A DNA stretch of 64,000 nucleotides, taken from the NCBI GenBank assembly GCA_965230995.1, contig OZ246398.1, forward strand, positions 309,204-373,203, given 5' to 3'. The notes below the pieces were generated by a model that was not told where the DNA came from, did not search any database, and saw nothing but the letters and a program-made list of their open reading frames with translations. A program made the translations under genes and the position numbers. The stretch is from an uncultured Candidatus Saccharibacteria bacterium. Its GTDB lineage: Bacteria; Patescibacteriota; Minisyncoccia; Phycocordibacterales; G965230995. Positions 7,513 to 7,941 of the stretch are shown here, in pieces; the first letter of the stretch is position 1; each line of letters opens with the position of its first letter.

Positions 7513-7941
7513 TGAGAGTTCATATATATGAATTTTCGACAATCTGAATCCTTAGAGGTCATAGAGAGAAGTGAGAAATATACTGTTATAAAACATTTTC
7601 GTTTATAAAAAAGTCCAAGAGTGAGTAACTCTTGGCAATAAATAAAAGATAGAAAGACAATCGAATCACGGCGGTACTAAACATTTGTTTAGATACTAAA
7701 CTGACTTATATCGGTAAAACCCCAAGTGGGCAATACCGAGGGAAGCCAAATTAGATTTTTAAAGCACAGAGTGCTAGGAAATCTTGGCGGCAGCTCGCTA
7801 AACGCGACTGCACTTGGATTTTCAATGACGTTATCACGTCAAGAAAATCTCGGCGCCCCTAGAGACTAAACGTCAGTCACAAAATCTTTCGAGATTTTGG
7901 GAAGCTATAGTCCATTGCAGATAGCAATATCTGGTAACAAG
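7513..7941 (+). ncRNA. group I intron (~429 nt) in 23S, between ...GGGTTCAGACCGT and CGTGAGACAGG... (E. coli ~2590s site)
   Basis: The 5' exon ends in T and the intron ends in G (aacaaG|cgtgagaca). The interior contains R-like cagagactaaacg (ctagagactaaacgtcagtc) and S-like aagctatagtcc elements. No homing-endonuclease ORF is present. Confidence 0.6.

Follow-up and report, generated by a model that had tools for sequence, protein, structure and literature searches.

What is the insert that interrupts helix 93 of the 23S rRNA gene in this CPR bacterium, and how would an RNA of its design hold the exons it has to join? The window, the whole 64,000-nt stretch of DNA analysed here, carries its 23S gene at 4472-8234 (Rfam LSU, 2252 bits). 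Global alignment of this gene to E. coli rrl leaves a single clean gap of 429 nt at 7513-7941, in agreement with the claim of an earlier sequence-only reading that removal of this stretch restores a continuous exon. The gap falls after position 2592 of the 2903-nt E. coli copy, that is, between U2593 and C2594 in the 2904-nt numbering, a conversion that we take to be fixed by G2583, U2585 and A2602; the ‘2590s site’ first proposed is exactly L2593. The flanks are GGGTTCAGACCGT upstream and CGTGAGACAGG downstream, and the exon is restored in no other register. The insert follows a U (T7512, immediately 5′ of it) and ends in G (G7941, its last base), both as first read; at the predicted ligated junction the exon ends are GGGUUCAGACCGU and CGUGAGACAGG (GACCGU, then CGUGAG). 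G+C content is 38% in the insert, against 46% in the rest of the 23S gene.

7513-7941, forward strand: group I intron, ORF-less, 429 nt (gap against E. coli rrl, Intron_gpI match, fold z-score −5.3)

No homing endonuclease gene is present, as had been claimed: the longest ORF wholly within the insert has 47 aa, and a tblastn search with LAGLIDADG proteins of the intron family found no endonuclease remnant in it. Two minus-strand frames of 65-68 aa enter the insert from the flanking exons. Set beside the mobile introns of the I-CreI family, which encode a single-motif LAGLIDADG endonuclease that cuts 23S genes at the unoccupied site, the insert is without such a gene, and its P5 has 3 bp and a 5-nt loop. 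On comparative evidence, 7513-7941 is confirmed as a genuine endonuclease-free intron of the self-splicing type (group I), at L2593 of 23S, in the CPR/Patescibacteria. Its architecture exceeds chance: the 10-nt guide, base for base, would turn up 1e-4 times in sequence of the same composition, and the entire design is found again in over 100 further genomes.

A guide far from the 5′ splice site

The IGS pairing with the 5′ exon, suggested at the outset as a check, was found, with U.G at the splice site; the same guide pairs the 3′ exon as well (P10).

7508-7512, forward strand: 5′ exon strand of P1, ACCGU, ending at U2593; 5/5 pairs with 7671-7675, U.G at the splice site
7653-7665, forward strand: conserved A-rich motif AAAGACAAUCGAA (family form AAGACAUCA), just 5′ of the guide, from the alignments
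7666-7675, forward strand: internal guide UCACG-GCGGU (UCACGGCGGU), pairing with the ligated junction in an unbroken run of ten
7942-7946, forward strand: 3′ exon strand of P10, CGUGA, 23S 2594-2598; 5/5 pairs with 7666-7670

U7512 pairs with G7671 in a P1 of 5 bp, worth −5.3 kcal/mol alone in the window, and this U.G is kept in 98 of 98 distinct relatives. The same relatives, from CPR genomes, supply the helix statistics unless another sample is named; strand positions were set by sequence anchors rather than by pairing, and the anchor-defined, fixed-offset columns were analysed in Python. Across them P1 is 92% paired and P10 95%. With the exons conserved, P7, P1 and P10 are invariant and thus show no covariation of their own.

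Three arrangements occur among the relatives: type A has a conventional P1; type B adds to P1 a further exon-pairing segment, X; type C, the window's form, has X and a hairpin, Pa. [quoted passage not shown] In type A the GGCGG guide adjoins the splice site and is the sole guide present, which identifies the downstream guide as the genuine one. Intron positions +1 to +5 pair with the guide in 49% of cases, the same as slid controls (98 distinct relatives), and the first 11 bases of the intron form Pa, not a guide pairing. The displaced guide is a topological departure; P1 is not lost. Two other candidates were set aside. GAGGUC (~7555) as guide has a mismatch beside the wobble, lacks a P10 partner and is not conserved. 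X and Pa taken together as the true P1 would put U-1 opposite A (81%), C, G or U, with no adjoining P10 partner, and type A introns have only the GGCGG guide.

Core and peripheral helices

The remaining elements make up a group I core, with the P3-P8 and P4-P6 domains, a P3/P7 pseudoknot, a G-binding P7 with its bulged A, J8/7 and the R and S elements.

7559-7652, forward strand: expansion peculiar to the lineage, 3′ of X and 5′ of the guide, with hairpins 7586-7592/7602-7608 and 7615-7622/7628-7635 (fold)
7677-7692, forward strand: P2 hairpin, CUAAAC/GUUUAG, loop AUUU; P2 paired in 80/80 in alignment A2
7700-7705, forward strand: 5′ strand of P3, ACUGAC; 6/6 pairs with 7872-7877
7711-7739, forward strand: P4 (7711-7716/7734-7739), J4/5 AAA, minimal P5 (7720-7722/7728-7730), J5/4 CAA, from pairing
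7740-7858, forward strand: P6, GGG 7740-7742 with CCC 7856-7858, and a three-hairpin expansion (7745-7788, 7790-7811, 7817-7849)
7862-7867, forward strand: 5′ strand of P7, GAGACU, with G-binding pair and bulged A; pairs with 7909-7913, invariant in 98/98
7868-7877, forward strand: J7/3 AAAC, then P3′ GUCAGU, without P7.1/P7.2
7881-7898, forward strand: P8 hairpin with UUCG loop; 7/7 pairs, P8 covarying in the family
7899-7913, forward strand: J8/7 GGGAAGCUAU and 3′ strand of P7, AGUCC
7916-7941, forward strand: P9.0 (7916-7917/7938-7939), P9 (7918-7923/7928-7933) with GCAA loop, omega G7941

The P3-P7 core folds, as the sequence-only reading required, and comparison across the 98 distinct relatives supports it. 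P6 and P7 are 100% paired, P4 98.5% and P3 91.5% (with 120 double-change cells), and P3, P4, P5, P6a, P8, P9 and P9.0 show covariation; slid registers, for the helix set overall, reach 12-65%. The P9.0 pair covaries among G-C (54), C-G (24), U-A (6) and A-U (4). A blind mutual-information scan recovers P2, P5, P6a, P8, P9 and P9.0, and the minimum free energy (MFE) fold recovers P3, P4, P5, the branched P6, P8 and P9, with the z-score of −5.3 given above. At the 3′ end, the omega G is followed by an exon strand fully paired in P10. L2 is GNRA in most relatives and is not GNRA in the window. The S-like element reported earlier, aagctatagtcc, is present at 7902-7913; the R-like element is present too, at 7860-7872, but reads tagagactaaacg, its first base having been misread as c.

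The expansions are of another character. The stretch 7559-7652 has almost no similarity to other members by blastn, and its TTTCGT motif occurs in 40 of 102 members; the P6 expansion is common only to two relatives (L054 and L022, 77-85% identity). With no or few relatives for these window-specific parts, their folds rest on energy prediction. They were considered as remnants of an endonuclease gene and rejected: the ORF of the relatives occupies the P5 loop, which holds no ORF in the window, and tblastn found nothing. Nor are the hairpins at 7790-7849 displaced P7.1/P7.2, as they lie inside the GGG/CCC closing P6, which is 100% conserved, and the real ones follow GAGACU; GCGACU (~7805), tried as an alternative P7 strand, is likewise inside the closing helix of P6.

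The Infernal run proposed in the earlier reading gave a match to Intron_gpI (RF00028) in a permissive search, 35.0 bits and E 2.4e-7 on a 476-nt stretch, with P3, P4-P6, P7/J8-7 and P9 aligned; at the gathering threshold of 50 bits, the intron at 7513-7941 has no Rfam match. Five of six relatives tested also score below that threshold, so the model under-represents this lineage. What Rfam assigns as ‘P1/P2’ (7580-7610) corresponds to a local AU hairpin within the expansion rather than to P1.

A second exon-pairing segment

Between the 5′ splice site and the guide lies a second segment complementary to the exon.

7500-7508, forward strand: 5′ exon strand of the clamp, 23S 2581-2589, GGGUUCAGA; 9/9 pairs with X at 7543-7551
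7513-7538, forward strand: Pa hairpin, intron nt 1-11 with 16-26 (7513-7523/7528-7538); 11/11 pairs
7543-7551, forward strand: X, auxiliary exon-binding segment, UCUGAAUCC, complementary to 7500-7508
7550-7558, forward strand: CCUUAGAGG, window form of the family C(N)GAGG motif 3′ of X (alignments A1 and A2)

The exon-X duplex is worth −13.3 kcal/mol. The unconstrained MFE fold of 7493-7700 contains both this duplex and Pa, and in the precursor fold the two give a nearly continuous hairpin of ~24 bp spanning the 5′ junction. X was found in about 104 of 108 GTDB-derived relatives, and the exon-X helix is 97% paired in the 98 distinct ones. Exon and intron change together: at exon 2586, C/T goes with G/A in X (96:6), and at 2588, G/A goes with C/T (60:40, and two G.U), none discordant in either case. 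On a tree built from other columns, the concerted switches at these two pairs, counted as independent, number about 19 and 5, and an independent sample, selected by protein, repeats the exon-X covariation with new variants. At 2583 the pair is G.U in 59 of 98, which restricts the pairing to the sense strand of RNA. As for Pa, intron +1 to +8 and the strand abutting X are 82% paired, with 206 double-change cells, against 37-50% in slid controls (98 distinct relatives). A mutual-information scan of the intron family found no covarying partner for the GAGG and AAGACAUCA motifs.

An extra helix of this kind, clamping the upstream exon by the splice site, is apparently undescribed: searches of the literature on group I introns gave nothing relevant on naturally occurring exon clamps or alternative hairpins. 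The clamp's proposed role is that of an exon-holding device.

Relatives and descent

Relatives selected by way of an I-CreI-like endonuclease form a series from conventional P1, through P1 with X, to the window's form. Their endonuclease belongs to PF00961 (E 7e-18 to I-CreI) and also matches I-MsoI and I-CvuI. Among these endonuclease-selected relatives (the 80 closest from a metagenome scan), the hairpin pair P7.1/P7.2 is present in 19 of 19 type A and 23 of 23 type B introns, in spans of at least 62 nt; it is absent from the window, where only AAAC separates P7 from P3′, a spacing at odds with subgroup IA. From P7 to J8/7 the window has 34 nt; the relatives mostly have 62-102 nt and two extra hairpins. 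The GTDB search pattern was biased to copies without P7.1/P7.2, and type A and B introns could not match it; for that reason the apparent rule that every ORF-less copy belongs to type C was abandoned. The sequence-only reading had seen neither the missing P7.1/P7.2, nor the distance of 154 nt between guide and splice site, nor the second exon-pairing segment.

Because the closest relatives carry P7.1/P7.2, descent from an IA-like lineage is indicated. The window copy descends from that lineage without being a structural IA member itself: it has been reduced, has no ORF and has acquired further peripheral RNA. The ancestor would have been an IA-like L2593 intron with an I-CreI-family endonuclease in its P5 loop; the lineage would then have gained X and later Pa, and lost P7.1/P7.2 and the endonuclease gene, an order of steps read from the distribution of characters rather than from a rooted phylogeny; finally, the window's own lineage would have grown extra RNA in the 5′ domain and P6. 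In the Twort structure, P7.1/P7.2 support the G-binding pocket of IA introns (as cited in PMC1995217). Their absence, or a non-GNRA L2, could weaken self-splicing.

A proposed mechanism, and its rivals

Very probably, an L2593 intron with guide-formed P1 and P10, an intact core, the X clamp and descent from an IA-like, endonuclease-bearing intron accounts jointly for these features. Since the guide pairs both exons and the core is intact, established group I chemistry should apply (PMC3984707): an external guanosine bound in P7 would attack the 5′ splice site; the terminal G would then replace it in P7; the freed 3′-OH of U2593 would attack the 3′ splice site, leaving an uninterrupted 23S. The clamp may act as follows. 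The exon-X helix would form first during transcription and keep the exon out of rRNA folding; it would present the weakly paired splice-site bases (-4 and -3 mismatched) to the downstream guide, which would pair them, so that P1 and the clamp together make a pseudoknot. Once the 5′ exon has been cleaved in the first step, it would still be held by the clamp, whereas the 5-bp P1 alone would hold it weakly.

A broader proposal, offered tentatively and as possible rather than probable, is that this family has a natural two-part mode of exon binding, in which a guide of 4-5 bp in P1 is joined by an upstream segment pairing 6-10 bp with 23S 2581-2590, P1 being an H-type pseudoknot about the 5′ splice site. 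The series would run from conventional P1 to added clamp to added Pa; gain of the clamp would precede the losses of P7.1/P7.2 and of the endonuclease, a possible maturase, and may have permitted them.

An alternative perspective makes the exon-X/Pa hairpin a timing or inhibitory switch, one that sequesters the 5′ splice site, melts fully before P1 forms and holds splicing back until the whole ribozyme is in place or ribosome assembly has reached a given stage. It competes with the accessory-helix role only and leaves the identity of the element untouched. In its favour, alternative 5′-exon hairpins reportedly compete with P1 in Tetrahymena pre-rRNA, as Woodson and Cech are said to have described in 1991; X is transcribed long before the guide; A2589 is used by both X and the guide; and in type C, the window included, G2592 and U2593 pair with intron A27 and C28, extending Pa, so that these bases too are common to clamp and P1. 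Against this, X leaves exon -4 to -1 uncovered in all 21 type B introns, where those bases sit in a loop of 8-16 nt: nothing is sequestered, and clamp and P1 can coexist. In type C there is a mismatch opposite C2591 in 86%, and the base opposite U2593 varies (A, C, G or U), as if the proximal part had been selected to be weak; in the window this competing pairing is worth ~0 kcal/mol, against −5.3 for P1. We regard the switch as unlikely, and the exon-holding role remains the preferred reading of the clamp.

A further possibility, improbable in our judgement, is that the insert is a decayed group I remnant, either retained in the mature 23S or dependent on a host or trans-acting protein. PMC11270868 cites the Simkania L1931 intron as retained in mature 23S, and notes that LAGLIDADG proteins can serve as maturases; the endonuclease lost here could have been one. 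P7.1/P7.2 and the GNRA L2 are lost as well, and Rfam gives only 35 bits. However, P7, J8/7, J4/5, P9.0, the terminal G and the guide are all identical to the family consensus, endonuclease-bearing members included, and in 95 ORF-less relatives from different species every helix is preserved, with compensatory changes, a sign that the RNA is still under selection. An unspliced 429 nt in helix 93, at the peptidyl-transferase centre, would be unlikely to be tolerated, and the 23S match found within the 64-kb window is the insert-bearing copy.

Known intervening sequences (IVSs) of 23S lie in helices 9, 25 and 45; the insert, by contrast, is in helix 93, its two ends do not pair with each other, and it has a full ribozyme core. 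That it is an IVS removed by RNase III without religation, leaving a fragmented 23S, with the ~24-bp hairpin across the 5′ junction as processing site, is very hard to credit: RNase III-processed IVSs do occur at other sites in bacterial and CPR 23S, but these known sites, 23IS2 and 23IS4, lie elsewhere (both points from PMC11270868), no comparable helix joins the insert's ends, and such a reading accounts neither for a conserved guide able to pair with either exon nor for P9.0, the terminal G, an invariant P7 that binds G and homology to endonuclease-bearing group I introns.

Comparison with known systems

For its host the element is ordinary, as CPR 23S introns at 2593 are already published: a 2024 survey (J Bacteriol, PMC11270868), in its accessible text, names a CPR insertion at this position ‘23IS12’ and describes group I introns there, often with a LAGLIDADG_1 ORF. 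The window's element shares with 23IS12 its host clade, gene and position, and the endonuclease family of the ORF-bearing members. As far as that text goes, the survey classed insertions by Rfam matches and ORF content, leaving RNA architecture undescribed. The window copy is ORF-less and below the gathering score, so such a pipeline would leave it unclassified or call it only at a relaxed E-value.

The same gene holds a second intron, as the sequence-only reading said and considered typical of CPR lineages.

6533-6835: second intron in the same 23S, site L1917 (Rfam 82.6 bits, passing the threshold)

Like the first, it belongs to group I, has no ORF, lies in domain IV/V, follows a U and ends in G; its P1, however, is conventional, with a single guide (6546-6554) 13 nt into the intron that makes 9 bp with the exon, U.G included.

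The Chlamydomonas chloroplast intron Cr.LSU, that of I-CreI, presumably occupies L2593 also. Cyanobacterial L2593 introns with P7.1/P7.2 are known from Synechococcus C9 and C1 and from Thermosynechococcus elongatus (PMC1995217). The window's intron shares the site with both groups, and the endonuclease of its relatives is homologous to I-CreI, I-MsoI and I-CvuI; type A and B relatives, with short P5, short P2 and P7.1/P7.2, match the published description of L2593 introns (PMC1995217). Unlike these, the window's intron lacks the endonuclease gene and P7.1/P7.2, and has the guide at 154 nt, the clamp, Pa and a branched P6. Homology at the RNA level to the cyanobacterial and chloroplast introns is inferred from the published description.

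Introns of subgroup IC3 (Azoarcus, Anabaena tRNA-Leu) resemble the Rfam RF00028 consensus, and from the guide to the 3′ end the window's intron resembles them: P2 comes right after the guide, P2.1 and P5abc are both lacking, P5 is short and so is P6, P8 follows straight after P3′, L9 is GNRA and J8/7 is AAGNUAUAGUCC. Nothing in IC3 introns corresponds to the 5′ domain. The resemblance, drawn from features rather than from subgroup covariance models, arises by reduction.

Group II introns recognize their exons in two parts (EBS1/EBS2 with IBS1/IBS2); the likeness is that of a short pairing joined to a separate second substrate duplex, as with the guide and X, in another class of ribozyme. Engineered trans-splicing group I ribozymes with extended guides (PMC3895272) also gain substrate affinity from a second duplex, like X; these are artificial, and their extension binds substrate sequence on the 3′ side of the splice site, while X binds the 5′ exon and forms a pseudoknot with P1.

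Significance

The element itself is of minor importance, being a further copy, without endonuclease, of the group I introns whose frequency at 2593 in CPR bacteria is on record. It does have practical consequences. The standard Rfam model at its curated threshold misses most of the lineage, so that surveys relying on it will under-count CPR rRNA introns and leave insertions like this one unclassified; and reconstruction of the mature 23S, for annotation or phylogenetics, needs the exact boundaries of both introns, 7513-7941 and 6533-6835.

If the clamp works as proposed, it would be a natural counterpart of the extended guides of engineers, by which a guide of 4-5 bp holds a substrate that is itself strongly folded. 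Dozens of natural intermediates occur in the family, some having and some lacking the clamp, P7.1/P7.2 or the endonuclease, and they could be used to study how peripheral RNA and proteins take each other's place as ribozymes evolve.

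The insert and its boundaries

Global alignment against E. coli rrl places two large insertions in the 23S rRNA gene of the window, 303 nt at 6533-6835 and 429 nt at 7513-7941. The rRNA genes are unlinked and in an unusual order; 23S-5S and 16S share a strand, and the former precedes the latter by about 10 kb (Rfam coordinates):

4472-8234, bacterial 23S rRNA
8336-8441, 5S rRNA
18534-20022, 16S rRNA

A tRNA (21062-21135) follows the 16S gene, and an L10 leader lies at 752-873. Smaller departures from E. coli 23S are a 69-nt insertion at 4789-4857 (after about position 288), other short gaps at 4689-4703, 4768-4781, 5118-5150, 6162-6180, 6480-6497 and 8215-8231, with several 14-19-nt expansions among them, and an 18-nt deletion near position 1442; the short gaps and insertions may represent minor expansion segments or insertions of IVS type.

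The 429-nt insert is a single clean gap after position 2592 of the 2903-nt E. coli rrl copy, which is U2593/C2594 in the standard 2904-nt numbering (anchors G2583, U2585 and A2602). Its exon flanks are GGGTTCAGACCGT and CGTGAGACAGG. The sequence-only reading had claimed that removing 429 nt restores the exon, that the insert follows a U and ends in G, and that it holds no homing endonuclease gene. All three claims hold: no alternative register restores the exon; T7512 precedes the insert and G7941 is its last base; the sole ORF wholly within it is 47 aa long, and a search for an endonuclease gene remnant found none. Two minus-strand frames of 65-68 aa enter from the flanking exons. The S-like core string (aagctatagtcc, 7902-7913) stands as read, and so does the R-like string (tagagactaaacg, 7860-7872), except for its first base, which had been noted as c.

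At the gathering threshold, Rfam makes no call on the insert. With permissive filters, the Infernal search proposed earlier matches Intron_gpI to 7580-7934 (E 2.4e-7), at 35 bits against a threshold of 50; the alignment covers P3, P4-P6, P7/J7-3, P8, J8/7 and P9. An unconstrained MFE fold (z-score -5.3) recovers P3, P4, P5, a branched P6, P8 and P9, and P3 and P7 hold across relatives, as expected of a P3-P7 core. The expected pairing with the 5' exon is also there: a 10-nt guide, UCACGGCGGU (7666-7675; chance expectation 1e-4), is fully complementary to the ligated junction ACCGU/CGUGA, except for a G opposite the splice-site U. Judged from sequence, this pattern marks it as a group I internal guide that would form P1 with the 5' exon and P10 with the 3' exon. 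Every catalytic-core element agrees with the family consensus; with the conserved helices, this identifies 7513-7941 as a group I intron with an intact core. Set against such a core, a decayed, unspliced remnant is improbable, and an RNase III intervening sequence has next to no credence.

The ORF-less 303-nt element at 6533-6835 follows U1917 in the loop of helix 69 (GGCCGUAACUAU/...G/AACGGUCC) and bears out the earlier expectation of a second intron-type element in this 23S. Its P1 is conventional (9 bp, with a splice-site U.G and the guide at 6546-6554); Rfam coordinates (6489-6772) are offset by about 45-60 nt from the true boundaries.

Known introns at the site and their relatives

L2593, the 23S insertion site in E. 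coli numbering, is a documented group I site in Synechococcus and Thermosynechococcus, whose introns combine LAGLIDADG genes with a short P5 and P2 and a P7.1/P7.2 extension (PMC1995217). In a 2024 survey of CPR rRNA insertions, 2593 is a frequent 23S site with group I introns and LAGLIDADG_1 ORFs, and Rfam recognised only 45% of 23S insertions as group I (PMC11270868). Among six family loci tested, the L2593 intron reached the gathering threshold of RF00028 in one and was missed in five (L092, L022, L054, L104 and L027); this CPR lineage is thus systematically under-called by the standard model, consistent with the 45% in that survey. The intron at 7513-7941 is therefore ordinary for its host, one more member of a catalogued class, and the initial interpretation of it is supported.

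A search with a degenerate pattern of two core strings followed by the 3' exon matched at least 119 species-representative genomes, virtually all of them CPR/Patescibacteria. The matches listed include 108 complete introns, 231-737 nt long, at this position; no relative among them exceeds about 89% identity to the window 23S, the nearest being from two MAGs, one of them Ca. Paceibacteria. Helix strands were taken at fixed offsets from sequence anchors in 98 distinct sequences, no position being picked by pairing. P1 is 92% paired (U.G in 98/98), P10 95%, P3 91.5% (120 double-change cells), P4 98.5%, P6 100%, and P7 100% and invariant; slid-register controls give 12-65%. P2, P5, P6a, P8 and P9 came out of a blind mutual-information scan as well, together with a covarying P9.0 pair (G-C 54, C-G 24, U-A 6, A-U 4; G7917-C7938 in the window).

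Several loci with this CPR-type intron and 23S (among L017, L090, L108, L114, L119 and L120) are titled 'uncultured Bdellovibrionales'; many others are titled 'uncultured Candidatus Saccharibacteria'. These are automatically labelled TPA assemblies, and their taxon labels look unreliable. In L054, a tRNA match (3397-3470) falls within the span of the 23S match (1841-4699), and a weak downstream tRNA match of 129 nt (7206-7334, 39.7 bits) may be an intron-containing tRNA.

A helix with the upstream exon

The textbook arrangement of a group I intron has the guide close to the 5' end, with the first intron bases extending P1 (PMC3984707). The window guide, in contrast, begins at intron nt 154 (55-248 in GTDB relatives), and there is no P1 extension; across the 98 sequences, pairing of the intron 5' end with the guide is 49%, equal to controls. 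Intron nt +1 to +8 pair with a downstream strand (the Pa hairpin; 82%, 206 double-change cells), and X, directly 3' of Pa, pairs with upstream exon 2581-2590 (97%). In the window these are:

7513-7523 / 7528-7538, Pa hairpin
7543-7551, X, pairing with 7500-7508 (-13.3 kcal/mol)

The exon varies at two positions across CPR lineages, and X tracks both without exception: 2586 C/T faces G/A (96 and 6 sequences), and 2588 G/A faces C/T (60 and 40, plus two G.U; none discordant), the anchor pattern for X having accepted either base whatever the exon. A rough NJ tree from other intron columns gives about 19 and 5 concerted changes, which plainly shows many independent switching events, as reconstructed. 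G.U at 2583 in 59/98 sequences means that the pairing works in sense RNA only. Folded without constraints, the window's own precursor (7493-7700) takes on exactly this arrangement: an exon-X helix of 9 bp, then an internal 2x2 loop at -4/-3, and after it 13 bp of helix that continue across the splice site. The covariation is repeated in 30 members of a metagenome sample that have all four RNA signatures; further variants there include exon GGGTTAAAAC paired with X TTTTAACCC.

The spacer that separates X from the guide in the window (7559-7652) shows next to no similarity to other members. TTTCGT (window 7598-7603) occurs in 40/102 family spacers, far above composition expectation, including those of L027, L011, L113, L107 and L119; ...AUAG.A...AAUC often follows, just before the guide, which suggests a conserved structural module of the 5' domain. 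ACTGTT lies at 7582-7587.

The X-side hairpin was considered as P1 and rejected: U2593 lies opposite an A (81%), C, G or U; in 86% of sequences C2591 is mismatched; and no P10 partner adjoins.

Probable origin of the helix and reduction of the core

The long members of the family encode single-motif LAGLIDADG proteins (PF00961), closest to I-CreI, I-MsoI and I-CvuI (E 7e-18 to wild-type I-CreI), enzymes that cut the same 23S site. An independent metagenome scan with an alignment of these proteins gave, among the 80 closest endonuclease relatives listed, 71 complete endonuclease-bearing L2593 introns, all with the same GGCGG guide.

Types of L2593 intron in the metagenome sample
Type A, 19 introns: guide 3-30 nt from the splice site, conventional P1, no X
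Type B, 23 introns (analysis of 21 distinct 5' ends): exon -13 to -8 bound by a short X
Type C, 29 introns: X plus Pa, like the window copy

Since the guide occurs in all types, and alone in type A, the downstream guide is, on this comparison, the true, ancestral one, and X an accessory apparently gained within the lineage. In type B, X reaches at most -5 and never pairs exon -4 to -1, so the exon-X hairpin has the splice site in a loop of 8-16 nt. This layout shows a clamp (the exon-X pairing) and a P1 that seem made to form together, as an H-type pseudoknot.

The window core resembles a compact IC3-type intron in having P2 directly 3' of the guide, a short P5, a GNRA L9, and P3' then P8 directly. 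Protein-selected relatives with P7.1/P7.2 show this look to be the probable outcome of reduction. The P7-to-J8/7 span is bimodal, 20-48 nt or at least 62 nt (mostly 62-102); long spans have two clean hairpins, P7.1/P7.2, between P7 and P3', and the window copy (34 nt) lacks them. They occur in 19/19 type A and 23/23 type B introns of the protein-selected sample, type C being mixed; the GTDB sample is biased on this feature, as its pattern required AGACTAAAYG and could retrieve only copies without them.

The endonuclease ORF of relatives lies in the P5 loop and starts within J3/4-P4; the window P5 is a 3-bp hairpin. The extra length of the window copy lies in the X-guide spacer and the P6 interior, where three hairpins (7745-7849) are common to L054 and L022 only. 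The second contains CUAAACGCGACUGC (7794-7809), which resembles the P7-J7/3-P3' string CUAAACGUCAGUCA (7865-7878); an internal duplication of that stretch may have given rise to the P6 expansion. Unusual endonuclease-bearing introns include L136 (1198 nt), L138 (1187 nt), and L127 and L128 (802 nt); some have an extra insertion of ~450-500 nt between P7 and J8/7, others an unusual 3' region with no recognisable J8/7 at the usual place.

A proposed role

Established group I chemistry applied to this intron comprises guanosine attack (here at U2593), exchange for the terminal G (G7941) and P10-guided exon ligation (PMC3984707). We lean towards a clamp that acts jointly with P1. It would form first, during transcription, keeping peptidyl transferase centre (PTC) nucleotides 2581-2590 out of rRNA folding, and would offer the guide the weakly paired bases -4 to -1. 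Once the first step is over it would retain the 5' exon, which the 5-bp P1 (-5.3 kcal/mol) binds weakly; helices 90 and 93 would then refold, stripping the ligated exons off the intron.

The main rival takes the exon-X helix as a pure timing or anti-P1 switch. Beside the type B layout, that reading is possible, though distinctly the less favoured. The joint clamp remains our preference.

The architecture (a distant guide, a covarying auxiliary exon-binding helix and loss of P7.1/P7.2) is a variant of which we found no description in the open-access papers searched. The intron itself is of little note; its exon clamp and the series of intermediates found in nature matter moderately.
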